NCBI GenBank assembly: GCA_964419235.1
Contig: CAYQPP010000002.1
Coordinates: forward strand, 1 to 44,693
Direction of reading: 5' to 3'
Length of the DNA stretch: 44,693 bases
DNA from: an uncultured Bacteroidales bacterium
Lineage (GTDB): Bacteria; Bacteroidota; Bacteroidia; Bacteroidales; SZUA-534
The position numbers and the translations under genes were made by a program. How positions within the stretch are numbered: the stretch's first letter is position 1; each line of letters starts with the position of its first letter. The notes beneath the pieces were generated by a model, which saw only the letters and a program-made list of their open reading frames with translations, was not told the origin of the DNA and searched no databases. This document shows, piece after piece, positions 10,872 through 43,209 of this stretch.

Positions 10872-13442
10872 CTAATCTTTATATCTTATTCCCATTACCA
10901 GAATATCATCAACCTGCTCATTTTCGCCACGCCATTCATCAAAAGCTTTTTTAATAATATCTTTCTGCTCTTTCATCGATAGCGGGTTTATTTCAAAAAG
11001 TAGTTGCTTAAAACGTTTGGTCAAGAATTTTTTTCCACTCTTACTTCCAAACTGGTCAATAATACCGTCAGAGAAAAGATAAAATACATCTCCTTCGTTA
11101 AACGGGTAGTTGTAATTAGTGTATGATGTAATGCTTGTGCCTGATATACTGCTTGTAATTGGAATTTTATCGCCCTTAATTTCAATAAAATCGCCATTAT
11201 TAAATAGGTAAACTGGCCTAAGTGCGCTTGCAAATTCAACGGTTTTTTCGTTTTTGTCAACAATGGCAATCGAAATGTCCATACCATCGCTTGTTTGTGT
11301 CCTATTATCGGCTTTTAATGCAATTTTAATTTTGCGGTTGAGCTGTTTTAAAATCTCGGCAGCATCGGTTACCCCATTATAAATAATAATAGAGTTTAAC
11401 AAATATGTACCTATAATTGACATAAAAGCTCCGGGCACGCCATGTCCTGTACAGTCAACAGCGGCAATAAAATATTTATCCTGAATACGGTGGTACCAGT
11501 AAAAATCGCCACTCACAATATCTTTTGGCAGAAACAGCACAAAACTGTCGTGAAAATCGCGCTGAATTTGTTTTACCTTGGGCATAATACCGGTCTGTAT
11601 CCTTTTTGCATACCTAATGCTATCGGTAATCTCAATTTGGCGTACCTCAAGCTCATCTTTACTTGTTATTGCCAAATTCTTTTGGAGCTCGGCATCTTTG
11701 CGCTGCTGATTTAATTCATTTTCATATTGTTTGAGCCTTGTAATGTCGGTATCAATTGCAATTAAATAGTTTATATTGTCGCGCTCATCCATAATTGGCG
11801 TAAGGGTGGTATGGTACCATTTTTCCTGTTTATTTTCATTAACCATTTTTGATTCGTATGATACTACTGATTTTTCGCGTAAACAGGTATTTAGTACGTG
11901 CCTGATGTTTTTATTTGAACTAATATCAATAATACTCAATGGCTCTGCCCGATGGTACTCATCAAGGGTCATACCTAAAGTAAGGCTAAACGAATTGTTG
12001 AACCAGTCGAGCTCTCCGTTGGGCAAAAATATATATATTAAGTTATCGGTTTTGCTTGCCACCAACGATAGCTTGCCTAATTCATAATTTTTTAATTCCA
12101 ACAACTCTTTTTGTGCCCTCAGCTCTTCGCGTTGAGTTTGCAGTGTGTCTTTTTGTTGAATAAGCTCCTCATGTTGCGATTTTAGCTCCTCTTTTTGCGA
12201 GTTAAGTTGGTAAGTCCGCTTCTCGACCAACTGTTCTAAATTTTTATTCAAATCAATTACCTCTAAGCGCGAATTCTTAAATTTTGATATAAAAATAAAA
12301 ATCATGATAAAGAAAAACAGCGTAGTGGTAATGGTGGCAATTTGAGTATCGTAAAAACCTATACCAAACGATTCAACAAGAAAAAAGGCCGGCACAATCA
12401 AATTTGCAATAATTATACCTAAGGCAAAACTATATTGTTTAAAGAAAGGGATACCTTTTTTTCGGTTAACGTAAATACCCCAAACGGTAACAGCTGACAA
12501 TATTATTAATAAAAACCGATATCCATAAAAATACATATTATGCGACTTGATAAATAACTGCATAACTGTAAAAACAATTGAATATAACAACCCTAACTTA
12601 ATAAGCTGCACAAGGCGTTTGTTAGCACTCTTTATTCTTAAATAATTAAATTCAAAAAGTAACAAAAAGAACACTAAAACAGGAGTGAGCATTCGCCCCA
12701 CAATATAATTTACTAACGGATAATTTGGCCACACATACTGAAAAAGGTATCCGTCGCGCCAAAGACTTATTAACCCCATTAATACTACAAAACCAAACAA
12801 AAACCAATATGAGCGCTGTTTTTCCGAGTGCCACAAAATGGTAATCATAAAAAGAAAAAAAACAAGAATACAATAAAATACCCCACCGGCAAATGCATTA
12901 ATCCGTAACTTGTTTACCGCAACTTGCTCCGACATTAAAGATATTGGCAAATACTCGGGTTGTAACTGCATATTTACCTTAAAGCATATTGTTCCGCGCT
13001 GCCCAGAATTGACTTTTATTTTAAAGAGGTAGTTTTTAAAAATAACCTGCCTCTGCATAAACGGATAAAAAAAACCGGTATGGTGATATGTTGAATCAAA
13101 TGAGTTGAAAAAGGTAATGTCGGTAATAAGCGGGTTGTTAATTGACAGGGCTATCTGTTGAATTTGGTTTGTGTTGTTTTGTATCTTGATTTTATACCAC
13201 TGGCTTGGCGCATTTCTGTAATATACAAAGGTTGTTTTTTTCGATTGTATAAACTTACTCTCAAATTCGCTGCTCAAAACTTGCTCAAATGAGTATTGAT
13301 TGGAACTGTCAATCAAGTAAAATACATTTCCCGAAAGGTCGAATATTTTATCGCTGCTTGTTTCGTTTATATAAACAACACCCCCGGCAAATATGGTTGA
13401 CCCAAATAATAAGAGATAAAATGTGAAAATTAATTTCCTCAT
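10872..13442 (-). CDS. 7TMR-DISM receptor with PAS and PP2C/SpoIIE-type phosphatase output
   Basis: 856 aa. Signal peptide, an extracellular domain of about 170 aa, 7 TM helices, Q/E-rich coiled coil, PAS-like segment. C-terminal SpoIIE motifs SGDFYWY, AAVDCTGHGVPGAFMS, DGMDISI, SDGIIDQFG, DDILVMG. Confidence 0.85.
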   Translation of the reverse strand: MRKLIFTFYLLLFGSTIFAGGVVYINETSSDKIFDLSGNVFYLIDSSNQYSFEQVLSSEFESKFIQSKKTTFVYYRNAPSQWYKIKIQNNTNQIQQIALSINNPLITDITFFNSFDSTYHHTGFFYPFMQRQVIFKNYLFKIKVNSGQRGTICFKVNMQLQPEYLPISLMSEQVAVNKLRINAFAGGVFYCILVFFLFMITILWHSEKQRSYWFLFGFVVLMGLISLWRDGYLFQYVWPNYPLVNYIVGRMLTPVLVFFLLLFEFNYLRIKSANKRLVQLIKLGLLYSIVFTVMQLFIKSHNMYFYGYRFLLIILSAVTVWGIYVNRKKGIPFFKQYSFALGIIIANLIVPAFFLVESFGIGFYDTQIATITTTLFFFIMIFIFISKFKNSRLEVIDLNKNLEQLVEKRTYQLNSQKEELKSQHEELIQQKDTLQTQREELRAQKELLELKNYELGKLSLVASKTDNLIYIFLPNGELDWFNNSFSLTLGMTLDEYHRAEPLSIIDISSNKNIRHVLNTCLREKSVVSYESKMVNENKQEKWYHTTLTPIMDERDNINYLIAIDTDITRLKQYENELNQQRKDAELQKNLAITSKDELEVRQIEITDSIRYAKRIQTGIMPKVKQIQRDFHDSFVLFLPKDIVSGDFYWYHRIQDKYFIAAVDCTGHGVPGAFMSIIGTYLLNSIIIYNGVTDAAEILKQLNRKIKIALKADNRTQTSDGMDISIAIVDKNEKTVEFASALRPVYLFNNGDFIEIKGDKIPITSSISGTSITSYTNYNYPFNEGDVFYLFSDGIIDQFGSKSGKKFLTKRFKQLLFEINPLSMKEQKDIIKKAFDEWRGENEQVDDILVMGIRYKD

Positions 13443-24091: not shown

Positions 24092-24186
24092 TGTTAAAAA
24101 GATTATTTGCAAATTGATATTGTTGTATCAAAAACGTAGCGGTTACAATAAAATTGCAACCGCCACAAAAATATATAATTTACGTA

Positions 24187-26633: not shown

Positions 26634-27719
26634 TTAATATTGCAGTTTTAACACTCTGTTTGCAATTTTATCTAATGGCATAATCTCGATGGCTGCTTCC
26701 ATTTTAATTGCCTCTTTAGGCATTCCGAAAACTATACATGTTTTTTCGTCTTGTGCAATGGTATGAGCTCCTGCCTCTTTTAATTCGAGCAATCCTCGGG
26801 CTCCGTCATCGCCCATGCCTGTCATAATTACGCCAATAGCATTTTTGCCTGCATATTTTGCTGTTGAGCGAAAAAGTACGTCAACTGACGGCCTGTGCCT
26901 GTTTACTAACGGGCCGTCATTAATTTCAACAAAATAGCGTGCTCCGCTGCGCTTAAGTATTAAATGGTGGTTGCCGGGCGCTATTAAAGCGCGTCCGCGA
27001 ATTACAGTGTCGTTGTTTGAGGCCTCTTTTACTGTTACCTTGCAAAGGTCGTTTAGCCTATTGGCAAACGAACGCGTAAACTGCTCAGGCATGTGTTGCA
27101 CTATTACTACTCCCGGGCTGTCGGCAGGCAATGTTTCAAGAAACACCCTTAATGCTTCGGTACCTCCGGTTGATGCTCCTACAACTACTACTTTTTCGGT
27201 AGTTTTAAGCATGCTTTTGTTTAAGCTGCCTTTTGATATTATGGCATCGGCACTTAACTTGGGTTTTACCTCGATAGGTACAGCCGGTTTTTTTATATTT
27301 TTTTTGCGCTTTAGCTTTGCGCTTGCAGCAGCTTTAATGGCATCAATAATCCTTGTTTTCGACTCTTCGATAAACTCTTTTGTGCTAAGTTTTGGTTTTG
27401 TTATGATTTCGACAGCCCCGTATTCTAATGCTTTTATTCCGGTTTCGGTTCCGGTTTCGGTTAAGCTTGAAATAATTACTACAGGAATTGGGTGTTGAGT
27501 CATTATTTTGCGCAAAAAAGTTAAGCCGTCCATTCGTGGCATTTCAATATCGAGTGTAATAACATCGGGGACTTCATGTGCTATTTTGTTGGCGGCAAAA
27601 TATGGGTCGGCAGCTACTCCCATTACTTCAATAAGTGGATCATGCATTAATATACTGCTGAGCGTTTGTCGAACTACAGCCGAATCGTCAACTATTAAAA
27701 CTTTTATTTTTTCGTTCAT
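26634..27719 (-). CDS. cheB: Chemotaxis response regulator protein-glutamate methylesterase
   Basis: 361 aa. Receiver (VLIVDDS...[12 protein letters not shown]...) plus methylesterase motifs [33 protein letters not shown]. Confidence 0.92.
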
Positions 27720-27720
27720 T

Positions 27721-28218
27721 TTATTGCCGTTGTTTTTGGATGAGTTTCATTAGTACTACTCCCGTTTCGGTATTAAAACGTATTTTTCGTCCTAAAGTAC
27801 CTCCTACACTTTGTCCTGTTATTTTTATTTTGTTTTCTTTTAGAGCCTTTATTGCTATTTCGATATTTCGTTCGCCAATTTTAAATATATTGGTTTTTGA
27901 TTCAACAATTTCGCCCCCGCCAAATACTTTAGCTTGCAGGTTAGTTGGTTTTGAACCAAAATTTATCATTTTTTCAATAAGTTTTTGGATAGCTATGTTG
28001 CCATATTTTGGCGATGCCAACCCTGTACCGTTCCAAAATGGCAACATATAATGGTTTATTCCTCCTATTTTTTTTACGGGATCGTACAGGCATACGGCCA
28101 CGCATGAGCCCAAAATAGTATCTACCAAAAATGGGGTTTCATCAGCAAACAGGGCTGATGGGTACAAAAAATGTGTATTTATTTGGCTATTAGAAGATTC
28201 CATCCTCATTGTCATCAA
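27721..28218 (-). CDS. cheD: Chemoreceptor glutamine deamidase CheD
   Basis: 165 aa. [48 protein letters not shown]. The start is uncertain (Met at 28218, 28215, 28209 or 28203). Overlaps the upstream kinase-like gene by 14-29 nt. Confidence 0.85.
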
Positions 28219-29089
28219 AAATAAATTCGTTTCCGTCTAAGGCATATCCTTCGGTATCGCTAATTTCTGATTGTGGTATTGATACCGTAAATACTGACCC
28301 TATATTTTGTTTGCTTACTATCTCTATTTTCCCGTCTAATATGTCAATTAGGGCTTTTGTTACCGACAACCCGAGACCGTGCCCCGGGTTTAATGAGTTT
28401 ATTGAGGTGTCGATTCTTTTAAATCGGTCGAAAATAGTGGCAAGGTTTTTTTTGTTTATGCCAATGCCATAATCTTTAACCGATACTTTTAATGTGTCAT
28501 CCTCAACCCAGCCATTAACTTCGATACGGTTTGCGGCATTACTGTATTTAATTCCGTTATTAAGCAGGTTTGATATTATAAGCCTCAATTTTTCGGGGTC
28601 GGTTTTAAAAAAGCAGGCTTCTTTTAATTTTTTATCGAGCTTAAACGAGAAATTTATTTTAAGCTGTTTTTGCTCGGCTTTATATTCATATGCGCTTATT
28701 ACACTACCAATTAATAGGTTAATGTCGGTTTTAATAAATTCGGGGAATGCTTCGCCCGCCTCAATGCGTGCTGCTGTAAATATATTTTTTAACTGAAAAT
28801 CAAGTTCAAAGGCTTCGGAATGTATCAATTCGGCCATGTTTTTAATTTTCTTGATATCAATATCTTTTGCTGCGATTATATTTTTTGACAACCCCAATAT
28901 TGAAGCAAATGGGTTAACTATTTCATTTGTTATGTTTGAAATAAAATGGCTTTTTAGGGCTTCTGATTCAGTTAGTTTTTCGTTTACCAGCTTTAATTCG
29001 TCACGTTGTTTACCTATTGTTTTGTAGCAACCGGCAGCTTCCTTGAGCTTTAATTTAAGTTCTTCAATAAATTCTTTATCTGACAGCAT
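28190..29089 (-). CDS. Soluble HisKA/HATPase_c protein lacking the phospho-acceptor histidine (His->Asn)
   Basis: 299 aa with no TM or sensor domain. DHp H-box reads KSHFISNITNEIVNPF where the other kinases in this window read FLSNMSHEIRTPM and GVAHEINNPI. N-box LLNNGIKYS, G1 DYGIGI, F FDRF and G2 GHGLGLS are intact. Confidence 0.8.
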   Translation of the reverse strand: MLSDKEFIEELKLKLKEAAGCYKTIGKQRDELKLVNEKLTESEALKSHFISNITNEIVNPFASILGLSKNIIAAKDIDIKKIKNMAELIHSEAFELDFQLKNIFTAARIEAGEAFPEFIKTDINLLIGSVISAYEYKAEQKQLKINFSFKLDKKLKEACFFKTDPEKLRLIISNLLNNGIKYSNAANRIEVNGWVEDDTLKVSVKDYGIGINKKNLATIFDRFKRIDTSINSLNPGHGLGLSVTKALIDILDGKIEIVSKQNIGSVFTVSIPQSEISDTEGYALDGNEFIFDDNEDGIF

Positions 29090-29099
29090 AGCGGTTTAT

Positions 29100-29951
29100 T
29101 TATGTTTTTATAAATACTGTTGGTTTTATATTTTTTAAAGGCACTTTCATGTTAGTAATTGATTCGGAGTGCCCTAAAAAGAAATAGCCTTTGGGGTTTA
29201 ATTTGCTACATAATTTATTAATTACCTGCTCTTGGTTTTCTCTTTCGAAATAGATGAGTGCGTTTCGGCAAAATATAATATCAAACATTTCATTAACGTT
29301 ATAATTTGTGTCCATAAAATTTAACCGTTGAAATTTCACTCTATCTCTAAGCACTTTATTAACCCTGACTTTTGGGTCGGTACGGTTTTTTGATTTTTGA
29401 AAATATTTCTTTTTTAAGTTAAGCGGAATAATTTCAATGCGTTCTTCTTTATAAATGGCATTAGCTCCTTGTTGCAGCATTTGGGTAGATATGTCGGTGC
29501 CAATTATCTCAAAATCGAAGCCGAGGTTTTTTTCTTTAAATTCGTTTAAAACAATGGCAAGCGTATAGGGTTCTTCGCCCGATGAACAGCCTGCGCTCCA
29601 AACTTTTACTCTTCTAATTCCTTTATTATTGAACAGATCGGGTAAAATATCATCTGTTAATACCTCAAAGTGTATTGGCTCGCGATAAAAATCGGTTTTG
29701 TTTGTGCTAACTACATCCATCATGTGTATAATCTCGTTTTTGCCCTCTTTGCTAAAAACAAAGTCAACATATGTTTTATAATCGGGCATTTGGAGTTTTC
29801 GCAACCGCTTTTGTAGCCTTCCCTGTAAAACTATTCTTTTTGCAGGGGGCATTTTTATTCCATAGTTTATTTGAATGAATTGGCTTAATTTATTAAATTC
29901 TTTGTCTGATAAAGAGGTGTTATAAATACTATTGCTTAATATGCTATCCAT
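29100..29951 (-). CDS. cheR: Chemotaxis protein methyltransferase CheR
   Basis: 283 aa. N-terminal helical CheR_N-like region. SAM-binding VWSAGCSSGEEPYTLA and IFCRNALIYF. Confidence 0.9.
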   Translation of the reverse strand: MDSILSNSIYNTSLSDKEFNKLSQFIQINYGIKMPPAKRIVLQGRLQKRLRKLQMPDYKTYVDFVFSKEGKNEIIHMMDVVSTNKTDFYREPIHFEVLTDDILPDLFNNKGIRRVKVWSAGCSSGEEPYTLAIVLNEFKEKNLGFDFEIIGTDISTQMLQQGANAIYKEERIEIIPLNLKKKYFQKSKNRTDPKVRVNKVLRDRVKFQRLNFMDTNYNVNEMFDIIFCRNALIYFERENQEQVINKLCSKLNPKGYFFLGHSESITNMKVPLKNIKPTVFIKT

Positions 29952-29977
29952 AAATAGATTAAAATAGATTATTTTAG

Positions 29978-30520
29978 TTATGCATTATTTGTTTCTGCAT
30001 CAATTTTTTCAATATCCTCCTTCTCTAATTTTTCAACATCTTTGGTTATAAGCAACTCGGTTGTGCTAAAAATAAGGTCGATATTTAGGAGCATAATAAA
30101 GCCTTTGTCTAATTTATACATGCCTTGTATAAATTCGGTTTTGTATTTTGTTCCTATGGCCGGCGACTCTTCAATTTCGCTATCTTTTATTTCTAAAACC
30201 CTGTCAACCGTATCAACTAATATACCGAGTTGTATATTCTCTTGGTCGATTATAATATTAAGCACAATAATGCAGGTGTTTTTTGTAAACTCCGTTGCCT
30301 CCATTCCAAATTTAATACGCATATCAATTACCGGTAATACGTTGCCTCGAAGGTTAATAACCCCTCTCATGTAATTGGGCGAATTGGGTACTTTTGTAAT
30401 GGGCTTTAATTCTAAAATAGTTAAAACCTTTGCTACATTAACTGCAAAAAACTCTTTATTCAGTTTAAATGATAAAAAGGTAGATACATTATCTACGGTA
30501 TCTAATATATTCTCATCCAT
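29978..30520 (-). CDS. cheW: Chemotaxis coupling protein CheW
   Basis: 180 aa. FLSFKLNKEFFAVNV...VPNSPNYMRGVINLRGNVLPVIDMRIKFG is a typical CheW domain. Confidence 0.9.
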   Translation of the reverse strand: MDENILDTVDNVSTFLSFKLNKEFFAVNVAKVLTILELKPITKVPNSPNYMRGVINLRGNVLPVIDMRIKFGMEATEFTKNTCIIVLNIIIDQENIQLGILVDTVDRVLEIKDSEIEESPAIGTKYKTEFIQGMYKLDKGFIMLLNIDLIFSTTELLITKDVEKLEKEDIEKIDAETNNA

Positions 30521-30522
30521 AA

Positions 30523-32571
30523 TTAACCTCCAATTTTAATTTCGTTGCTGGCAAAATCCGATATAAGTTTATTTGTATCCATAACAAGCGCAACTGAGCC
30601 GTCGCCTAATATTGTGGCTCCTGATATTGACTGTTGATTTTTGTACATTTTACCAAGAGGTTTTAATACTGCTTGATACTGACCTATTATATTGTCAACC
30701 GACAATCCTATTTTTGTTTCGCCGTATTGCACTACTACAACATGCTCGGTTTCTTGTGCTTCGCCTTCAATTTCAAACAGCTTGCGCATGTTAAGGTGGG
30801 CAATTTCGGTATCTTCTGTCCTTATTAAATGGTTTACGGCATTTTCAAGTACCGAATGTTTAAATTCGTAACATTTATCGACCGACGATAATGGTATCAC
30901 AAATTTGGTGTCGCCTAATTGTACTAGCAATCCATCAATTATTGATAGTGTTAACGGCAATTTTATTGTTATAGTTGTCCCTTTGTTTATTGTTGAGTCA
31001 ATTTCAACCTCGCCCCTAATTTCGGCTATTTTGCGTTTTACCACATCCATGCCTACCCCACGTCCTGAGACTTTTGTTATTTTTTTGGCTGTTGAGAAAC
31101 CGGGTTGAAAGAGCAGGTCGAATATTTCTTTATCTGACAGTTCTGCTTCGGGAGCTATCAACCCTTTTAAAATTGCTTGGGTTTTTATTTTTTCGGGGTC
31201 GATACCTTTGCCGTCGTCGGATATTTGGATTACCACGCTTGTGCCTGAATAAAAAGCTTTTAATAGTATGGTTGCCCGTTTGGGTTTGCCTATGCGTTGG
31301 CGTTCGTCGGCATTTTCGATACCGTGATCCATGCTGTTTCGTACGATATGCATAAGCGGATCGGCCAATATTTCAATAATATTTTTATCGAGCTCGGTTT
31401 CGGTGCCTTCGGTTTTAAACACTACTTCTTTGCCCATCTCTTGCGATAATTCTCTAACCAGCCTGTGAAATCGCGTAAGCATATTTTCGATTGGTATTAG
31501 CCTTATGCTAAAAACATCGTCGCGCAAGCGGCGCGAAATTTTTTCTACCTCTTCAACAATAGGCATCAATTCTGCAGTTTCGGTTTTGGTGGCAAAAAGG
31601 CTCAGGCGTGCTTGTATTGTTATAAGCTCGCTTACCCAATTAATCAGGTTGTCTAACTTGTCTGACGATACTCTAATGCTGCTTATACTTGTTTTTGCTT
31701 TGTTGTCGCCAAATTTTTGTGCTTGTTTTTCTTGTTCTTTCGAAAATACTTTTTCTAACTCTTGTGTTAATAAAAGCAGTTGGTTAACGTCAACCTTTTT
31801 TTGGTTGCTGATGGTTTCTTCTATTATCCCGATAAATGACGGCTCCTCCAAAAGGTTTATTTCGGCAACTTTATGCACGTTTAAATCGCATTGGTCGTCG
31901 GCAAAAATAAAAACCTCGCCAACGGCGTTTATGCCTTGGTTGGTTGCCAAAAATATGTCCCAATACACATAGCATTTTGTAGGGTCCATGCTGTTGCTAT
32001 CGGGCAATTTGTCAAACCTCGGAAATACTTTTATCTCGCCTAATTCATATAGTTCATCAATTAGGTACAATGGGTTTGTTCCAAATTTAAAGATATTATC
32101 GTGTGGAATAAAACTGATGTAATAGGTTGACAAGTTTTTGTTTTTTCGTGCATCAATATGCTGTATGGTAGCGCCAACATCTTGTGCAACAACATTTTCG
32201 TCAATAATGTCTATTATTTTTGTCAATAGCAAATCGTGCTGTACTTGATGGGCAGAATCGGCATCGTCTTCTTCGTGTATCAGGTTGCGCAAATGATCTA
32301 CCGATGCCAAAGTAACATTAAGTATGTCGTCGTTTATGGCAAGTTTCTTGTTTCGGATTAAATCATATATATTCTCGAGGTGGTGTGTAAATTTATCCAT
32401 TTTTTTAAACCCAAACATGGAGCTGCCACCTTTAAGTGAGTGCATAACCCTGAACACCTGTTCTATTATTTCAGGATTCTCCTGATTGCCATCGAGTTCA
32501 AGCAGCGATTTTTCGAGATCGTTGATTAAATCATTGGCTTCCTCTATAAATTTTTCTCTGAATTTATCCAT
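30523..32571 (-). CDS. cheA: Chemotaxis histidine kinase CheA
   Basis: 682 aa. Hpt MHSLKGGSSMFGF, dimerisation IRVSSDKLDNLINWVSELI, HATPase DPLMHIVRNSMDHGIE, DDGKGID, GRGVGMDVV, and a C-terminal CheW-like P5 domain. Confidence 0.93.
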   Translation of the reverse strand: MDKFREKFIEEANDLINDLEKSLLELDGNQENPEIIEQVFRVMHSLKGGSSMFGFKKMDKFTHHLENIYDLIRNKKLAINDDILNVTLASVDHLRNLIHEEDDADSAHQVQHDLLLTKIIDIIDENVVAQDVGATIQHIDARKNKNLSTYYISFIPHDNIFKFGTNPLYLIDELYELGEIKVFPRFDKLPDSNSMDPTKCYVYWDIFLATNQGINAVGEVFIFADDQCDLNVHKVAEINLLEEPSFIGIIEETISNQKKVDVNQLLLLTQELEKVFSKEQEKQAQKFGDNKAKTSISSIRVSSDKLDNLINWVSELITIQARLSLFATKTETAELMPIVEEVEKISRRLRDDVFSIRLIPIENMLTRFHRLVRELSQEMGKEVVFKTEGTETELDKNIIEILADPLMHIVRNSMDHGIENADERQRIGKPKRATILLKAFYSGTSVVIQISDDGKGIDPEKIKTQAILKGLIAPEAELSDKEIFDLLFQPGFSTAKKITKVSGRGVGMDVVKRKIAEIRGEVEIDSTINKGTTITIKLPLTLSIIDGLLVQLGDTKFVIPLSSVDKCYEFKHSVLENAVNHLIRTEDTEIAHLNMRKLFEIEGEAQETEHVVVVQYGETKIGLSVDNIIGQYQAVLKPLGKMYKNQQSISGATILGDGSVALVMDTNKLISDFASNEIKIGG

Positions 32572-32936
32572 TATCGTACAACTTTATTTATTGCTGCTAA
32601 AAGTTTTTCGGGTACAAAAGGCTTTATTATCCAGCCTGTTGCTCCGGCTTCTTTTGCTTCCATTTTTTTTGCCGTTTGCGACTCTGTGGTCAAAAACAGA
32701 ATGGGAACAAATTGATAATCGGCATTTGCCCTTACATTTTTAATAAATTCTATGCCATTCATATTGGGCATGTGCAAGTCGGTAATTATCAAGTCAAACT
32801 TGGTTTTGTCAAGAAATTTTAAGGCGTCTTGTCCGTCAATGCCTTTTGAAACTTCATGTCCTGCATTCTCAAGGGTAAAGCTTACTACCTCACGAATACT
32901 TTCTGAATCGTCAACTATAAGTATTTTCTTTCCCAT
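32571..32936 (-). CDS. cheY: CheY-like single-domain response regulator
   Basis: 121 aa. KILIVDDS, DLIITDLHMPNMNG, LFLTTES, IIKPF. Its stop overlaps the cheA start by 1 nt. Confidence 0.9.
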   Translation of the reverse strand: MGKKILIVDDSESIREVVSFTLENAGHEVSKGIDGQDALKFLDKTKFDLIITDLHMPNMNGIEFIKNVRANADYQFVPILFLTTESQTAKKMEAKEAGATGWIIKPFVPEKLLAAINKVVR

Positions 32937-32954
32937 TTTTAATGGATTTTATAA

Positions 32955-33266
32955 TTAATTAATTGTATTGGCAAATCCTGCTCTTTTAAACAGCTCTAAT
33001 GTTTCGTTATTTATGCCGAGGTCTATTTTTATTTCGATGTTCGACTCTTGGCACATTTGTTTTAATCCTACTAAGTATTGAACCAGCGATAAATCGGCAT
33101 CATCGACCTCGGATATTTTCAGGTTTACTTTTTTGCTGTTTTTAATAGCAGAGCTTAATTCCTTTTTGATTCCCATAATATTGGAAACATTCAAATACCC
33201 TTGCACCTCGATATCAAGCGCCTTGGTTTTTTTGTTTTTTGATGAGTTAATTCGATACTCTTTCAT
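32955..33266 (-). CDS. STAS-domain protein (anti-sigma-factor-antagonist fold)
   Basis: 103 aa. LDIEVQGYLNVSNIMGIKKEL...VNLKISEVDDADLSLVQYLVGLKQ...IEIKIDLGINNETLELFKRAGF fits the STAS beta-alpha pattern. The DSSG-type phospho-Ser motif reads DLSL. Confidence 0.7.
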   Translation of the reverse strand: MKEYRINSSKNKKTKALDIEVQGYLNVSNIMGIKKELSSAIKNSKKVNLKISEVDDADLSLVQYLVGLKQMCQESNIEIKIDLGINNETLELFKRAGFANTIN

Positions 33267-33304
33267 AATTATGCTTGCTTTTTTATGTGTTCCTAAAAAA
33301 ATAT

Positions 33305-35110
33305 TTAAAACAGTTCAATGTCGTTATCATCAATGTTATATGGAATGCTGTCGGACTCGTTTAACAGTTCGTCAACGCTTTTTCCGGTATCCGTAAGTTT
33401 GGCGTGTATATCGCGCTCGCTTTTCATGGTATATAGTTTTTCAATCTCCTTAAGGTACTTTTTGTTATCGCCCAAATTGCTTTTTAATGAATCGTAATTT
33501 ACTATTTTGTTAATTTCGTTTAATAAGGATACAATCTCTTCAACTGTTATCTTAAAATACGTGTAATACTCTATTTTCTTTAATGATAATGTTATTTCAT
33601 CCGATATTTTGGTGCTCAACAAAGCATATTCTTTAGTTTTCTGTTTTATTTGGCCTGTTTTGTCCGAAAGGTTATCTATTGATTTTTTATCAATATAATA
33701 ATTTTCACTTCGAGGTTTAAAGGTATCAAAAATATTTGTTAAAAACTTAATATTTTGAGTAATACTGTTAAGATGTGTTTTTAAAGAGTTTGAATTAACC
33801 TGTAAATCAGAGAATAAGTCTTTTATCCTGCGGGTAAGCTCTTTTCCGAAATTTTTGCCGTTTGCACGCATAAGCGATTCAAAATTATGAACCTCTTTTC
33901 GCAATGCCTTTTCATTCAAAAATATGGTATTATATTCATTTTTCAGGTTGTTGTAATCACTTTTCAGTTGGCTGATTTTAACGGTTGCTTTTTTTCGGTT
34001 TTCAGTAAGTTTTTCAAAATATCCCGAAAAAACACCTTGAGCCGCAACAATTTGGTTTATTGTGTTGCTATCAAATTTGTAGGCATTTTCATGTATTGAG
34101 CTGTATATTGAATGTAATGCCTTCATTTCATTGCCTACCTCGATAAGCTGGTTTGTTATTTTTTCAATTGATGTTTGATAATCTTTATTTGTATATAGGA
34201 GTTGTGCTACTTGTATGTCGGTAATTTCGGGTATTTTTACTATTAACTGCAATTGATCGTCGGTATTTTGCTCCGATTTGTTTATACTCTTTATTTCGTT
34301 TATCAGCTTATTTTGCGATGTTTGTATATGCTCCATTTTTTGCCTTATAATATCGTGGTACTGAATGTTTGTAATAACCTCGCCCATGTAGGCAAAACAC
34401 TTTTGTGTACGGCTGTTTAAGTCTGACACAAAACTTTCGGGCAAATAACTGTCTGATGATATTTTTTTAAATATGTTTATTGCTTTTCTTATTTCGTTGT
34501 TTAGTTTTGAGCTGCTTAAATTCTCGATTAGACAGGTGTTGTTTTTTAAATATGTAATTTGCTTTGACACCGATTCTGTATTCGTGTCGATTTTTTCTAT
34601 CTGATTATATATTTTCTCGATACTGCTTTCAATTGACTCAACACTTTTTTGTAATTCGTTTTTGTTTGACAGCTCAACATAATTAAGATGCAGTTTTAAA
34701 TTGGCAAGTATGTATTTTAAGGTAATGAGGTTTTGTTTAAAATTATTAAAAGGCACAACCAACAAATCAATTGAGGAGTATATTTGGGTAAGCAGGTCAA
34801 TAACGTTATTTATATTAGAGTCGGTTTCGCTTATCAGTTTTACCTGCATTGCGTTTTTATCGTTTATGTCACTTTTTATGACAGGTAAATCGTTATTAAT
34901 AAATACCGATATAACACTATTTGCATCTGAAATTTCTTTAATGTTTTTGTAATACTGCTTTAATAGCTTATTAAAATATAAAAAGTCTTTTGACGAAATG
35001 GTATGTAGCGAACTGATTTTAGTATCAATATCGCTCAGCTTATTAATAATTTCGTTACGTGGAAAATTATTTAAAAAATTATTTAGTATATTGTTGTCGA
35101 CTTTACCCAT
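33305..35110 (-). CDS. 601-aa soluble, predominantly helical/coiled-coil protein of unknown function; first gene of the Che-like operon
   Basis: Long uninterrupted ORF with N/K/I/E/S-rich heptad-like sequence and no TM segment. No MCP tip motif. Contains NIQYHDIIRQKMEHI (D253-x3-Q257). Acidic tail ...VDELLNESDSIPYNIDDNDIELF. Confidence 0.6.
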   Translation of the reverse strand: MGKVDNNILNNFLNNFPRNEIINKLSDIDTKISSLHTISSKDFLYFNKLLKQYYKNIKEISDANSVISVFINNDLPVIKSDINDKNAMQVKLISETDSNINNVIDLLTQIYSSIDLLVVPFNNFKQNLITLKYILANLKLHLNYVELSNKNELQKSVESIESSIEKIYNQIEKIDTNTESVSKQITYLKNNTCLIENLSSSKLNNEIRKAINIFKKISSDSYLPESFVSDLNSRTQKCFAYMGEVITNIQYHDIIRQKMEHIQTSQNKLINEIKSINKSEQNTDDQLQLIVKIPEITDIQVAQLLYTNKDYQTSIEKITNQLIEVGNEMKALHSIYSSIHENAYKFDSNTINQIVAAQGVFSGYFEKLTENRKKATVKISQLKSDYNNLKNEYNTIFLNEKALRKEVHNFESLMRANGKNFGKELTRRIKDLFSDLQVNSNSLKTHLNSITQNIKFLTNIFDTFKPRSENYYIDKKSIDNLSDKTGQIKQKTKEYALLSTKISDEITLSLKKIEYYTYFKITVEEIVSLLNEINKIVNYDSLKSNLGDNKKYLKEIEKLYTMKSERDIHAKLTDTGKSVDELLNESDSIPYNIDDNDIELF

Positions 35111-35256
35111 GAATTGTAGTTTTTTATTATAACCTTTTAAATTGCTTATTTGTTCAATATAACAATAAACTTTTATTTATTGTGATGTTATTTTCATTAT
35201 TTTATTATCTACTTATTAAATTGACAAGAGAACCATTTTTTATTGATAATATTTTA

Positions 35257-35264
35257 TACTTTTG
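35257..35264 (+). promoter_or_regulatory. Candidate -7 box (TACTTTTG) for the divergent response-regulator gene
   Basis: TAnnTTTG match 22 nt upstream of the ATG at 35287. Motif match only. Confidence 0.3.
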
Positions 35265-35286
35265 TTTTACTATTAATTAATATATT

Positions 35287-35886: not shown

Positions 35887-36093
35887 TTAGTCAAATATCG
35901 TGATGCATTAACAATTGTACATTAGATTAGCACCCAAATTTATTTGGGTGTATAAAACAATTACAAAACTCCAAATTCTCAATAAGTTTGCTTTGCAAAC
36001 TTATTGAGAATTTGGAGTACATGAGTAGATTACACCACAATACACCAAGCTAAAGCATGATGTTATTCTCATAATATTACGATATTTGACTAA
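35887..36093. mobile_element. MITE-like non-autonomous element inserted in repeat copy B
   Basis: 15-nt terminal inverted repeats TTAGTCAAATATCGT (35887-35901) / ACGATATTTGACTAA (36079-36093). The outermost TA dinucleotides could instead be a TA target-site duplication. No ORF. Internal hairpins at 35931-35950 and 35968-36018. Absent from the paralogous repeat copy A. Confidence 0.5.
35968..36018. repeat. Perfect 24-bp inverted repeat with 3-nt spacer
   Basis: ACTCCAAATTCTCAATAAGTTTGC ttt GCAAACTTATTGAGAATTTGGAGT. Read directly from the sequence. Confidence 0.9.
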
Positions 36094-39950: not shown

Positions 39951-40218
39951 TCTTTTATTTAGACAATTTCAATTAATTGAATCATTCATTTTATTCACAT
40001 TTTGTTAATAAAATGCTTTAAAGTTTAAATAGTTTTTGTGCAAACGCTAAATTTATATGTTGTAGTTATTGCAACATAACGTGCTATGTGCATTTAGTGT
40101 TAAGCAGCAAAAAGAAAATTTTATAGAATAATTACGAAATAAACTTGAAAATAGCTATCTTTTGAGGCATTTTAAAATAATTCAAACATTATAACCTAAA
40201 TTGAGCGATTCCAAACTA

Positions 40219-42816
40219 ATGTTTAAGCTTTTTTTTATATTAATATTTTTATTAAGCTTTTGGTTTAATGCTGTATCACAAACCTCCGAATCGAAGGTTA
40301 AAGCAGAGTTGATTTATAGGTTTTCTCAATATATTGAGTGGAAAAACGAACCCTTAATTGATACATTTAGGTTTGGGTTGTTAACTAATGATTCTACACT
40401 TATCAGTGAATTTAAAATTATCACTAAATCAACAAATCTAAGGTCAAAGCCTATAAAAGCTTTTGTTTTTGATGAAATTGCCAATTTTGAAACCATGCAT
40501 TGTATTTTTATTGATTATGGTTTTAGGAGGCATATGGCCGAGGTTGCGAGTTTAACAAAAAGAAAAGGGGTATTGTTAATTACATATAACACGCCCGATT
40601 TATTGCTAACCATGATAAATATTTATAAGTCAAAAAAAGAGATGACTTTAAAATATGTTGTCAATAAACAAAATTTAGATGAAGATAACTTTATTTATAA
40701 ACCAGAGCTATTGCTTTATGGTGGTAGTTTGGTTGATATTAAGGAGCTATACATTTCAACTAATAAAAAATTAAGTACAAAAAACAAAGAGCTTGATTCA
40801 ATTAACCGAAATTTGATTGAATTAAAAGAGAAGAGTGCTGAATACAAAACTCAAATTGAGCAAATGTCGTTACACAAACTCACAATGTTGCAACAGGTTA
40901 ATGAAAAAGAGTTAGAGGTGGCAAGGCTTAACAGCGAAATCAGCATTAAGGATTCAAGCTTGAGTAAAAGGAATATTGAACTTCAAACCCAAAAGGAGTA
41001 TAGAAAATTATTATCGAATAAGATTAAAGATAAAATGGATTCTATAGTATTAAAAGAGAGCAACTTAAAGGAGTTAAGCATACTATTGAGCGAGAAAAGA
41101 GATCTGATTTCTGAAAATCAACTATTAATTGATGAACAGCACTTGAAAATTGAGACTCAACAAAAAGGATTGTTAGTAGCTACTGTCTTTACTTTTACGT
41201 TAATTATAATTGTTCTGTTGGTAGTAATAGCACTTAGAACAAAAAAACGGTTAGCAAAGCGATTGGAATATTTGGTTGACATTAGAACAAAAGAACTTAA
41301 TAAAAGCAAGCAATACTACTTTAGTATTTTTGAGAATTCACCGGTTTCAATTTGTGAATTCGACCTATCGCTATTGGTTGATTATCTTAAAAAAAACAAG
41401 ATAAAATTACAAAACGGTAAGTATGCTTTACCCGACAAGCTGATTTTAAAGGCTGTTAAATTAATAAAAATAACAGATGCCAATTTTAAAACCTTAGAGC
41501 TGTATAATGCCAGCAGCAAACATGAATTTATAAAAAAATACGATCAGCTTTTTAATCAAGAATCAGTTGCAGGGTTAAAAAAACTTTTTGAAAAACTGCT
41601 TAATGAGGAAAAACAGTTTGAATTTGAGATAACAAGGATATCTTTAAAAAAAGAGATTAAACATTTGCTGCAAAGTTTTATCGTTTTGCCCGAAGACGAA
41701 GGAAAATATACAAATGTACTTGTATCGATGCTTGATATAACCGACTTGAAAATGTATGAACATGAAATAATTCGTCATCGCGATCATCTTGAAGAGCTGG
41801 TAAAAGAGCGTACAAAAAAAATTGTTGAATTAAACAGCTACTTGTCAAATGCAAACGACGAGCTGCAAAGCAAAAATGAAGATCTATCGGAAAAAAACAA
41901 CCTGTTAAATAAGCAGCAGGGCGAAATATCGGATCTGAACAGCGAACTGATTGAAACCAATACGCAACTTGAGGAGCAAAAAGAGGAGTTGTTGAACACG
42001 TTGTTGCAATTAAAAGATACGCAAATGCAGCTTGTTGAATCGGAAAAAATGGCTTCGCTTGGTATGCTTACCGCCGGAGTAGCGCATGAAATAAACAATC
42101 CTATTAATTTTATCAGCTCGGGAAACCAAGCCTTAGAGATGCTTTTTGACGACATGTGGGATAAGATTGACAATTTTAGGTTTTTGAACAGCGACTCGGC
42201 TTTAGAGTTGGTTGAAAGGGTAAAAGAGTTCTCGAAAGAGGTTGACAACGAGAATTATAAAATAACCATTAAAGAGATAATAGGAAACATTAAAATGGGC
42301 GTTACCCGAATTACCGAGATTGTCGGCAGCCTCCAAAAATACTCATCGAAATCGGAAATAGACACAACCCCTTTTAGTATTAACGACTGCATTAACGATG
42401 CCTTGGTAATTCTAAAAAATAGATATAAATATAAGGTTGAAATTGTAAGGCTTTTTGGCGATACCCCTTTAATTATCTCATCATTAGGTAAGCTCAATCA
42501 GGTTTTTGTCAATATTTTTTCAAATGCATTTGATGCAATAATTGAAAAAGGGGTTGTAAAGGTAACCACCTCCTATAAAAAAAGCGATAATGTTGTAGAG
42601 GTTATTATAAGCGACAATGGCATAGGGATAAACGAAGATGACCTAAACAAAGTTTTTGACCCGTTTTTTACAACAAAAGAAACCGGAAAAGGTACAGGTT
42701 TGGGAATGTACATCTCTTATGGCATTATTAATCAATTGAAGGGTACTATAAAATTTGAATCAAAAGTTGGCGAGGGGACAAAAGTTATTATTGAATTACC
42801 AATAAAATTGCAGTAA
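40219..42816 (+). CDS. Sensor histidine kinase with periplasmic YfiR/DUF4154-like domain and long periplasmic coiled coil
   Basis: The ATG at 40219 (track start is the TTG at 40201) gives the signal peptide MFKLFFILIFLLSFWFNAVSQ. VKAELIYRFSQYIEWKN resembles the YfiR/DUF4154 signature. A coiled coil of about 140 aa precedes one TM (LLVATVFTFTLIIIVLLVVIAL). Then a PAS-like segment, another coil, H-box GVAHEINNPINF, N-box NIFSNAFDA, DNGIGI, GTGLGMYIS. Confidence 0.8.
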   Translation: MFKLFFILIFLLSFWFNAVSQTSESKVKAELIYRFSQYIEWKNEPLIDTFRFGLLTNDSTLISEFKIITKSTNLRSKPIKAFVFDEIANFETMHCIFIDYGFRRHMAEVASLTKRKGVLLITYNTPDLLLTMINIYKSKKEMTLKYVVNKQNLDEDNFIYKPELLLYGGSLVDIKELYISTNKKLSTKNKELDSINRNLIELKEKSAEYKTQIEQMSLHKLTMLQQVNEKELEVARLNSEISIKDSSLSKRNIELQTQKEYRKLLSNKIKDKMDSIVLKESNLKELSILLSEKRDLISENQLLIDEQHLKIETQQKGLLVATVFTFTLIIIVLLVVIALRTKKRLAKRLEYLVDIRTKELNKSKQYYFSIFENSPVSICEFDLSLLVDYLKKNKIKLQNGKYALPDKLILKAVKLIKITDANFKTLELYNASSKHEFIKKYDQLFNQESVAGLKKLFEKLLNEEKQFEFEITRISLKKEIKHLLQSFIVLPEDEGKYTNVLVSMLDITDLKMYEHEIIRHRDHLEELVKERTKKIVELNSYLSNANDELQSKNEDLSEKNNLLNKQQGEISDLNSELIETNTQLEEQKEELLNTLLQLKDTQMQLVESEKMASLGMLTAGVAHEINNPINFISSGNQALEMLFDDMWDKIDNFRFLNSDSALELVERVKEFSKEVDNENYKITIKEIIGNIKMGVTRITEIVGSLQKYSSKSEIDTTPFSINDCINDALVILKNRYKYKVEIVRLFGDTPLIISSLGKLNQVFVNIFSNAFDAIIEKGVVKVTTSYKKSDNVVEVIISDNGIGINEDDLNKVFDPFFTTKETGKGTGLGMYISYGIINQLKGTIKFESKVGEGTKVIIELPIKLQ

Positions 42817-42840
42817 TAAATTATAATGCAACTGTTTATT

Positions 42841-43209
42841 TTAAAGCGAATTATAAGCCTTGTCCAAAGTTTTTAACAACTCATCCTTTTTCCAAGGTTT
42901 AATTATGTACTCAAATATATCTGCTTCGTTTAGCCCCATACTTATTGCCTCCGACAGATAGTAAGCCGACAACAAAAAACATATTTTTTCAGGGTACTTT
43001 TTTTTTATCTCACTAACGAGCTCAATGCCATCCATCTCAGGCATTTTTAAATCTGATATAATAACAGAAACATCCTCACTCTCAATTATTTCCAAAGCCT
43101 CTTGCCCCGAACTTGCTAAGTAAAGTTCAAAATGTTTTTGAAAATTAAATTTGAATAACTGTAAATTGATAAATTCATCGTCAACATATAAAAGCTTAGG
43201 CATTCCCAT
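42841..43209 (-). CDS. Single-domain response regulator (receiver only)
   Basis: 122 aa. LLYVDDE, VIISDLKMPEMDG, LLSAY, IIKPW. Convergent with the DUF4154 kinase gene. Confidence 0.85.
   Translation of the reverse strand: MGMPKLLYVDDEFINLQLFKFNFQKHFELYLASSGQEALEIIESEDVSVIISDLKMPEMDGIELVSEIKKKYPEKICFLLSAYYLSEAISMGLNEADIFEYIIKPWKKDELLKTLDKAYNSL

Follow-up and report, generated by a model that had tools for sequence, protein, structure and literature searches.

Clusters of chemosensory classes F7 and F8 are the closest described counterparts of the che operon analyzed here, which lies in a 44,693-nt stretch of DNA (hereafter the window) from an uncultured Bacteroidales bacterium of the lineage SZUA-534 (assembly GCA_964419235.1, contig CAYQPP010000002.1, positions 1-44,693). 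The ancestral F7 cluster has the order STAS-cheY-cheA-cheW-mcp-cheR-cheD-cheB, in which mcp encodes the receptor, a methyl-accepting chemotaxis protein (MCP), and a serine phosphatase is encoded nearby (Ortega et al. 2020, PMC7184735). Anti-sigma-factor antagonists of the STAS type are also present in the che1 and che2 loci of Shewanella, and che1 carries the CrsR/CrsA partner switch. F7 clusters of stages 1-2 (V. cholerae cluster III, P. aeruginosa Che2, and S. oneidensis Che1) have the same gene order as the window operon, with a Ser phosphatase nearby; they likewise lack cheZ, and their function is unknown or non-flagellar. F7 receptors are of the 36H type and Aer2-like (PAS-HAMP, soluble), and one of them, McpB, carries the C-terminal pentapeptide GWEEF. 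Receptors of the 34H type have been assigned to F8 systems, and the F8 cluster II of P. syringae pv. tomato combines an in-cluster 34H receptor that ends in a pentapeptide with a CheR bearing the pentapeptide-type insertion and with cheD (PMC11253619). Such pentapeptides, net acidic in composition, abound in the receptors of Bacteroidetes, and CheR binding relies chiefly on the aromatic residues at positions 2 and 5 of the pentapeptide (PMC7390727).

The window operon consists of nine genes in the order X600, STAS, cheY, cheA, cheW, cheR, HKL, cheD, and cheB (Pfam on the window's open reading frames, ORFs), where we have coined the name X600 for a 601-amino-acid protein and HKL for a His-less kinase-like protein. 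The F7 stage 1/2 order is conserved, with X600 added as the first gene, HKL inserted between cheR and cheD, and the mcp gene missing. A first-pass annotation, made from the sequence, had likened this core order to that of P. aeruginosa Che2-type clusters and had counted the STAS gene as a non-canonical recruit. The order does match that of published F7 clusters, but the MCPs linked to this operon in relatives are 34H-like, which in the literature leads to F8 and not to Che2/F7; the STAS gene, for its part, belongs to the published ancestral F7 architecture and to Shewanella che1 and che2, and is no recruit.

Compared with E. coli Tar (36H), 15 operon-linked MCPs of relatives have one 7-residue deletion in each hairpin arm, placed symmetrically about the tip. 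Because they have one heptad fewer per arm than Tar, we regard them as 34H-like; the 36H cognate receptors that an F7 system requires are not found among these 15. In contrast to the soluble, Aer2-like F7 receptors, they are membrane-bound, with Cache or 4HB sensors, although they share with McpB the possession of a pentapeptide tail: MCPs encoded between cheW and cheR have an acidic linker that leads into a terminal [DE][YF]E[KRN]F. The F8 trait of a 34H receptor with a C-terminal pentapeptide in the cluster is present in the relatives, whereas the corresponding slot of the window is empty. The 34H length and the pentapeptide tails of the linked MCPs point to F8 affinity. The CheR proteins of the window and of relatives align without gaps to the pentapeptide-dependent E. 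coli CheR, our sole comparison, through the beta-subdomain loop, with Arg197 invariant, but the loop glycines of the GXX insertion are not conserved. The length of the loop fits a pentapeptide-type CheR, which we take as suggestive only. Judged by gene order and receptor length, and not by MiST hidden Markov models (HMMs), the system classifies as F8/F7-like.

Neither the F7 clusters, which occur in another phylum, nor the described F8 clusters have counterparts of X600, of HKL, or of a GAF/PAS protein encoded downstream from cheB, and the window operon differs from both in having no receptor gene of its own. The STAS-containing F7/F8 cluster type is known already; what is new is the conserved lineage-specific set of X600, HKL, and GAF/PAS protein. 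A search of the chemotaxis literature on Salinivirgaceae, Perlabentimonas, and Williamwhitmania yielded nothing specific.

We give a probability of roughly 0.55 to the reading that this is a functional F8/F7-type operon of a Salinivirgaceae-like member of the Bacteroidales, which has lost the receptor from its slot, works with MCPs encoded in trans, uses X600, HKL, and the GAF/PAS protein as accessories, and has a non-flagellar output. MCPs encoded elsewhere would assemble with CheW and CheA; CheA would phosphorylate CheY, CheB, and probably a divergently encoded receiver; and CheR, CheB, and CheD would adapt the trans-encoded MCPs. X600 might dock a Che protein through its tail and act on CheY-P as CheZ does, HKL would dephosphorylate a response regulator or sense a phosphorylated one, and the GAF/PAS protein would probably provide cytoplasmic input. 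The output may be directed at gliding or surface functions, or it may be relayed by the STAS protein together with a PP2C phosphatase, in the way of the partner switches linked to F7 clusters. The core enzymes are intact: In alignments with the E. coli proteins every catalytic residue of CheY (equivalents of D12, D13, D57, T87, and K109), CheA (His48 and the G1 and G2 boxes), and CheB (the Ser/His/Asp triad) is kept, and CheY is 121 amino acids long in nearly all related loci.

The window contains no receptor gene. Pfam finds no MCPsignal domain in any of its ORFs of at least 110 amino acids, and a six-frame tblastn search, together with an HMM built from 16 MCP signaling domains, gave nothing better than E > 1 as an MCP remnant. 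The first-pass annotation, which had seen no MCP between cheW and cheR or elsewhere in the window, was right in this respect. To place the gap in context we scanned the GTDB representative genomes with an X600 profile, which gave relatives in 185 species; 79 loci were fetched, all loci were searched with the window proteins and three MCPs, and the states of 81 distinct X600 genes were scored. The backbone X600-STAS-CheY-CheA-CheW is conserved across the related loci. In 30 loci cheW is directly followed by cheR, as in the window. In eight, cheW and cheR are separated by one or two HAMP+MCPsignal genes; in seven, an MCP gene follows cheW and the sequence breaks off downstream; and five have two cheY genes, an MCP gene, and then Hpt and hybrid-kinase genes. 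X600 is uncoupled from che genes in a further 11 loci, from rumen and gut metagenome-assembled genomes (MAGs), and the locus is truncated in the other 20.

A canonical MCP gene therefore occupies the slot, or follows cheW, in 20 relatives (8 + 7 + 5) against 30 empty loci, and because relatives hold canonical MCP genes there, the cheW-cheR position is a true slot for a receptor gene. On a neighbor-joining tree of X600, a quick distance tree from which the count is approximate, empty slots fall in at least three to four separate places. The entire X600 clade of the window is empty-slot, while locus L001 is empty yet nested among the MCP-bearing loci L033, L078, L051, and L069. The in-cluster receptor gene is evolutionarily labile, and its loss from the slot is recurrent.

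X600, STAS, and HKL genes co-occur with in-slot MCP genes in L004, L028, L034, L056, L078, and other loci. Because they are present alongside in-slot receptors, they are not receptor substitutes, and the earlier suggestion that three extra genes had been recruited in place of a receptor does not hold. The conservation of these genes was borne out by the neighborhood comparison: Their association with che genes persists throughout a family whose members diverge to ~25% identity.

In the window's own clade, receptors are found close to empty-slot operons, with CheW-MCP modules 4-25 kb away (L011, L018, L020, L086, and L087). L011 and L018 have a response regulator-CheW-MCP module just upstream. 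In L086, whose X600 is 50% identical to that of the window and whose operon reads X600-STAS-CheY-CheA-CheW-CheR-HKL, genes for a response regulator, a small ORF, CheW, a carbonic anhydrase, and an MCP (4HB/HAMP/MCPsignal) lie ~4 kb upstream of the operon. L087 shares an 81,767-bp contig with the empty-slot L020 and holds four MCP genes and two response regulator-x-CheW modules. Since empty-slot sister species encode CheW-MCP modules a few kilobases away, the receptors of the window's pathway probably act in trans; since CheR, CheB, and CheD are retained intact, methyl-accepting substrates would be expected elsewhere in the genome. These satellite MCPs end in xFEK[MI]. Bacteroidales encode receptors of this type in great abundance: Matches at E ≤ 1e-60 to 1e-80 run to thousands of proteins, among them ones from the cultured Perlabentimonas gracilis and Williamwhitmania taraxaci. 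No orphan MCP on the 1.45-Mb contig of the empty-slot L001 came up among the best 120 matches.

The satellite module (L086:7951-11683; L087:6658-18774) consists of a response regulator, a small ORF of 76-111 amino acids, CheW, sometimes a beta-carbonic anhydrase (Pro_CA), and the MCP. It is unusual for a carbonic anhydrase gene to separate cheW from mcp, and this arrangement could be a sign of CO2 or bicarbonate sensing.

X600 represents a very large family that lacks annotation and is marked by a CheZ-type motif and a characteristic tail. An exact-sequence look-up of the window's own X600 gave no record. We found 85 close homologs, all of ~600 amino acids and all from Bacteroidales MAGs, and a profile search of 1.84 billion representatives returned at least 600 clusters (50% identity, E ≤ 1e-30), with identity falling to ~22%-25%. 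The best 150 matches are all full-length (~600 amino acids) and show no domain fusions. There is no Pfam match across 40 members even at E ≤ 10, nor any NCBIfam match. The AlphaFold2 (AF2) model is all-helical (pLDDT 79), with long helices at residues 18-115 and 283-415 and a disordered C-terminal stretch of 50 residues; Foldseek with this model against the PDB returned generic coiled coils only (SMC, Rad50, TTYH; TM-scores ≤0.2). A second set of invariant residues (Y515, Y516, F519, Y560, T561, and H569), in motifs YY..F and YTM.SER.IH, lies at residues 515-569 (~33404-33568, minus strand), partly in a low-confidence section of the model, and may be a separate binding motif.

X600 resembles MCPs in being long and helical, in its acidic linker, in a tail of the form x-hydrophobic-E-x-F, and in being encoded in a che operon. 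It differs from them in having no MCPsignal domain, hairpin tip, or methylation consensus, and in an Ala/Gly/Ser/Thr content of 20% versus 29%. The consensus [ASTG]2-x2-[EQ]2-x2-[ASTG]2 occurs at 0.01 sites per X600 compared with 3.2 per linked MCP, and there are no conserved E/Q pairs; because both are missing, X600 is not a canonical substrate of CheR, CheB, or CheD. An MCPsignal domain in the 601-amino-acid protein, which the first-pass annotation had named as a point to be checked, was found neither by Pfam nor by hhalign, and we could rule out that X600 is a cryptic MCP (hhalign probability 0.2% against 16 MCPs; no Pfam match for 40 members at E ≤ 10). The Thermotoga MCP 2ch7 was the top PDB profile match (E = 3e-8), but we judge this match to be compositional, since its bias scores are high, it ranks with designed coiled coils, and the tip is aligned to a gap.

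The most conserved block of the X600 family, I-T-N-[LI]-Q-[YF]-[HQ]-D-I-I-R-Q-K-M-E-H, lies in helix 226-277, ~24 residues before the turn at 278-282, and opposite it on the next helix are the conserved residues Q300, L304, N308, and Q312. The motif [FY][QH]DxxxQ is found at the same position in 81 out of 81 X600s, 17 of which have exactly [FY]-Q-D, compared with 1.3% of shuffled X600s and 4 of 966 other ORFs in the loci. The CheZ family is recognized by Axx[FY]Q with the catalytic DxxxQ immediately after it, as in E. coli AQDFQDLTGQ; distant CheZs are conserved only in the active site and in the C-terminal region, where the CheY-P-binding helix ends in ...DDLLDSLGF (PMC7750401). HisKA_3 kinases, NarX among them, likewise have DxxxQ as their phosphatase motif (PMC3510030). 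X600 ends in [DN][VIL]E[FL]F after a variable acidic linker in 83 of the 84 complete sequences.

X600 shares with CheZ the [FY]-Q/H-D-x-x-x-Q motif on a long hairpin helix, an acidic flexible linker, a hydrophobic C-terminal peptide ending in Phe, and a gene beside cheY. Unlike CheZ, it is three times longer, carries the motif in the middle of the protein and not near the linker, and in most members has His before the Asp. A profile comparison with E. coli CheZ by hhalign gave 0.3% with the motif unaligned, and X600 was set aside as a CheZ homolog on this basis; only a motif-level likeness is left. That X600 docks a Che protein by its tail and acts on CheY-P like CheZ is the reading of X600 that we prefer, put forward tentatively and with a probability below even.

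Several observations weigh against the overall reading given above. For the window's own genome no MCP is seen within the 44.7 kb at hand, where there is also no remnant of the satellite response regulator-CheW-MCP module; and the closest relatives (L006, L007, and L017) have no MCP inside 10 kb. The F class was read from gene order and receptor length instead of MiST models. As to X600, homology with CheZ is absent by profile comparison, by Pfam (no CheZ PF04344 at E ≤ 10), and by fold, and its motif lies ~340 residues from the C-terminus, unlike that of CheZ. Because of this lack of homology and the mid-protein position of the motif, the phosphatase idea rests on a short motif and the general architecture. 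Finally, the X600 tail also resembles an MCP pentapeptide, which would imply another partner, CheR or CheB.

This last resemblance leads to a different account of X600, as an adaptor or decoy that docks CheR or CheB, its tail being a pentapeptide variant that would concentrate these enzymes near the arrays or sequester them from MCPs. The tail does follow an acidic flexible linker as in the co-encoded MCPs ([DE][YF]E[KRN]F or xFEK[MI]); CheR has a beta-subdomain loop of E. coli length in empty-slot and MCP-bearing operons alike; and acidic pentapeptides are abundant in Bacteroidetes (PMC7390727). However, CheR binding centers on aromatic residues at positions 2 and 5, and while the X600 tail has Phe at position 5, nearly every copy carries V, I, or L at position 2. 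The tail is moreover unchanged in the rumen and gut lineages in which X600 is uncoupled from che genes and the two nearby MCPs have no pentapeptides, and the invariant DxxxQ block is left unexplained. We consider an adaptor or decoy role rather unlikely, though the CheZ-like and the CheR/CheB-tether readings of X600 are not strictly exclusive.

HKL, as a His-less HisKA protein that keeps the phosphatase residue, is the second novelty of the operon. Its HATPase_c match is strong and its HisKA match weak, while HATPase_c_2, at 20 bits, is below cut-off. The DHp helix reads K-S-H-F-I-S-N-I-T-N-E-I-x-N-P-F: The phospho-acceptor His is replaced by Asn (Asn55 in the window) in 38 of 38 species, and all 38 also conserve the Glu that follows, the T/N-position Asn, and both ATP-binding boxes, G1 and G2. 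The role of the T/N residue of the HisKA motif in phosphatase activity has been described (PMC3510030). With the acceptor His changed to Asn and with the ExxN residue and the ATP boxes kept, HKL is predicted to be kinase-dead at the canonical site and phosphatase-competent. These residues make it most likely that HKL is a dedicated response-regulator phosphatase or a sensor of a phosphorylated response regulator. Another histidine, His48 (~28946-28948, minus strand; K-S-H-F), seven residues upstream of the lost acceptor, is present in 37 of 38 HKLs and, being two helical turns away on the same face, is a possible alternative acceptor.

Kinase-dead or phosphatase-biased HisKA proteins are known elsewhere, with the acceptor His gone and the DHp fold, the T/N residue, and the ATP domain kept. 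Mutants of NtrB (H139N) and of EnvZ at His243 reportedly retain phosphatase activity; R. sphaeroides CheA3 is a CheY6-P phosphatase, and Caulobacter DivL has Tyr in place of the His. In contrast to the laboratory mutants, the change in HKL is natural and fixed in 38 out of 38 species, and the protein is encoded between cheR and cheD and has no sensor domain. By analogy, its role could be comparable to that of CheA3 or, as a sensor of a phosphorylated regulator, to that of DivL. A stronger version of the phosphatase idea, in which X600 would stand for a new class of chemosensory auxiliary protein, a giant CheZ-like CheY-P phosphatase from outside Proteobacteria with a convergent or extremely diverged [FY][QH]DxxxQ active site and a docking peptide at its C-terminus, that together with HKL ends the signaling of a Bacteroidales-specific pathway steering a non-flagellar behavior such as gliding or surface remodeling, seems to us rather doubtful.

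HKL might also act differently, as a serine kinase on the STAS protein in a partner switch that the 7TMR-DISM SpoIIE phosphatase encoded in the window would reverse, with STAS freeing an effector, much as CrsR/CrsA in Shewanella near F7. The elements for this do co-occur in the window (STAS, a His-less GHKL ATPase, and a PP2C gene), about nine other loci have a SpoIIE gene no more than 10 kb from X600 (L004/5, L012-14, L030, L031, L049, and L084), published F7 clusters combine STAS with a Ser phosphatase (PMC7184735), and CrsR/CrsA is a partner switch. A STAS-like ORF directly follows X600 in ~64 loci. But the motif shared by this family reads D-[LVI]-[ST]-x-[ILV]-Q; its Ser/Thr is shifted by one position, is not invariant, and is replaced by Ala or Gly in some members. 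The D-S-S/T-G phospho-site context, which we take from SpoIIAA and RsbV as the canonical reference, is absent from the STAS family here. HKL is furthermore of the HisKA/HATPase_c type and not of the RsbW/SpoIIAB type, the cluster contains no anti-sigma or sigma factor, and the SpoIIE gene of the window lies 11 kb past the end of the transcription unit. It is possible that this SpoIIE phosphatase is a partner of the STAS protein, but a full partner switch driven by HKL appears distinctly unlikely.

Still less probable, and in our view very improbable, is a pathway without receptors, in which X600, possibly fed by the GAF/PAS sensor, replaces MCPs in organizing CheA and CheW. Such a pathway would agree with the lack of MCPs in the window and within 10 kb in its closest relatives, with the long, helical build and MCP-like tail of X600, and with the label MCP that JGI gives to some X600 members. 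It would also agree with the distribution of the GAF/PAS gene, which lies within 600 nt of cheB in 18 out of 27 judgeable empty-slot loci (with five more nearby) versus one out of five MCP-bearing loci, an association that is confounded by phylogeny. Against this, the operons of 20 relatives carry X600 together with canonical MCPs; it has no MCP-domain homology, hairpin tip, or methylation sites, yet CheR, CheB, and CheD are intact; its match to the Thermotoga MCP is compositional; and the empty-slot sister species have MCPs nearby.

That this is an ordinary flagellar chemotaxis cluster, with MCPs and flagellar genes elsewhere in the genome as the intact core Che proteins and the trans-encoded MCPs of relatives might allow, is scarcely credible for a Bacteroidales host with gld genes, from a phylum generally without flagella; neither the window nor ~1.3 Mb of related loci, surveyed with Che queries and not specifically scanned for fli/flg, showed a flagellar gene.

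The phylum's general lack of flagella and the gld-type genes of the window together make a non-flagellar output likely; Williamwhitmaniaceae are described as non-motile or gliding. By Pfam, the window encodes GldD, a CNNM/CBS/CorC (GldE-like) protein, and Wza/Wzc-type proteins and matches no flagellar family, all as first annotated. The proposal of a non-flagellar output is plausible on these grounds.

Chemosensory pathways in Bacteroidales are essentially undescribed, and how gliding Bacteroidota control direction or behavior is not known. At least 185 Bacteroidales species share the F7/F8-like pathway, and new auxiliary Che proteins are rarely found. If X600 or HKL should prove to be a CheY-P phosphatase, CheZ-like signal termination would reach beyond Proteobacteria, and there would be a handle on the function of the ancestral F7/F8 systems. 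The question is experimentally accessible, as the cultured P. gracilis and W. taraxaci encode MCPs of the satellite type.

The features of the operon and its surroundings are listed in Table 1. The nine ORFs, all in one direction, fill positions 26634-35110, with spacings from X600 to CheB of +38, +18, -1, +2, +26, +10, -29, and +1 nt; exact coordinates and Pfam agree with the packing, direction, and order first described.

Table 1. Coordinates of the che operon, its motifs, and neighboring features in the window
Feature	Position	Strand	Remarks
X600, 601 aa	33305..35110	-	First gene; all-helical; no Pfam or NCBIfam match
X600 residues 251-257, Y-H-D-I-I-R-Q	34340..34360	-	CheZ-type [FY][QH]DxxxQ; most conserved block of the family
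X600 C-terminal tail, D-I-E-L-F-COOH	33308..33322	-	After variable acidic linker
STAS-domain protein, 103 aa	32955..33266	-	Pfam STAS, E=3e-8, 33.8 bits (cut-off 22.6)
CheY, 121 aa	32571..32936	-	Response_reg, E=1.5e-28
CheA, 682 aa	30523..32571	-	Hpt, H-kinase_dim, HATPase_c, and CheW domains
CheW, 180 aa	29978..30520	-	Pfam CheW, E=1.5e-35
Empty receptor slot	29952..29977		26-nt cheW-cheR spacer
CheR, 283 aa	29100..29951	-	CheR_N + CheR, E=3.5e-61
HKL, 299 aa	28190..29089	-	DHp-like helix; HATPase_c, E=8.5e-24; HisKA under cut-off
HKL residues 55-59, N-E-I-V-N	28913..28927	-	His to Asn; E-x-x-N phosphatase residue kept
CheD, 165 aa	27721..28218	-	Pfam CheD, E=7.4e-28
CheB, 361 aa	26634..27719	-	Response_reg + CheB_methylest; over NCBIfam cut-off
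Protein with GAF and three PAS domains, 761 aa	24187..26472	-	Pfam; no output domain
Terminator-like hairpin	24135..24167	-	15-bp stem, then T run; just past GAF/PAS gene
Single-domain response regulator, 130 aa	35287..35679	+	Divergent; Response_reg, E=2.8e-24
7TMR-DISM/PAS/SpoIIE (PP2C) serine phosphatase	10872..13442	-	Pfam; outside the operon

Strong minus-strand terminator hairpins are located at 36015-35971 and 24167-24135, and between them there are only weak intragenic matches. Because these terminators bracket the cluster and none of strength lies between cheB and the end of the GAF/PAS gene, the predicted transcription unit probably comprises ten genes, from 35110 to 24187, with the GAF/PAS gene last. 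The intergenic region between X600 and the divergent receiver gene (35111-35286) has a G+C content of 15%. A search for the Bacteroidetes-type element TAnnTTTG gave a match for the divergent response regulator gene only, 30 nt upstream; a sigma-70 promoter scan is not meaningful for Bacteroidetes. In most loci X600 has an ortholog of this receiver as its neighbor; the L086 copy is 73% identical. In L012-L014 the X600 operon is immediately preceded by an ortholog of the gene for the SpoIIE membrane phosphatase.

Among the related loci, some show further architectures. A third one (L002, L026, L029, L037, L038, L040, L044, L054, and L076) has X600, a STAS-like gene, two cheY genes, cheA, cheW, and an MCP gene, followed by genes for an Hpt protein and a 926-amino-acid hybrid kinase ahead of cheR, which suggests a phosphorelay branch. 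L021, L024, and L025 have an extra cheY-like gene between cheR and HKL, so that a receiver adjoins the pseudo-kinase. A host-associated clade of rumen, gut, and fecal MAGs (uncoupled X600 loci L041, L042, L045, L046, L064, L074, L079, L080, and L082) has X600 among housekeeping genes, with the STAS gene missing. The neighbors in these rumen and gut loci (DUF4199, GT2, then DnaJ or FtsK), housekeeping genes only, gave no clue to the output; the DxxxQ block and a DVEFF tail are kept.

Two observations concern the remainder of the window. The hairpin at 35971-36015, which lies 3′ of a PAS histidine kinase gene, is a 20-bp perfect inverted repeat (CCAAATTCTCAATAAGTTTG...CAAACTTATTGAGAATTTGG), far exceeding the stem of a typical terminator. 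At 40201-43209, on the plus strand, an 871-amino-acid histidine kinase with an N-terminal DUF4154 domain (YfiR/HmsC-like) is encoded beside a convergent single-domain receiver of 122 amino acids on the minus strand, a further signaling pair near the operon.

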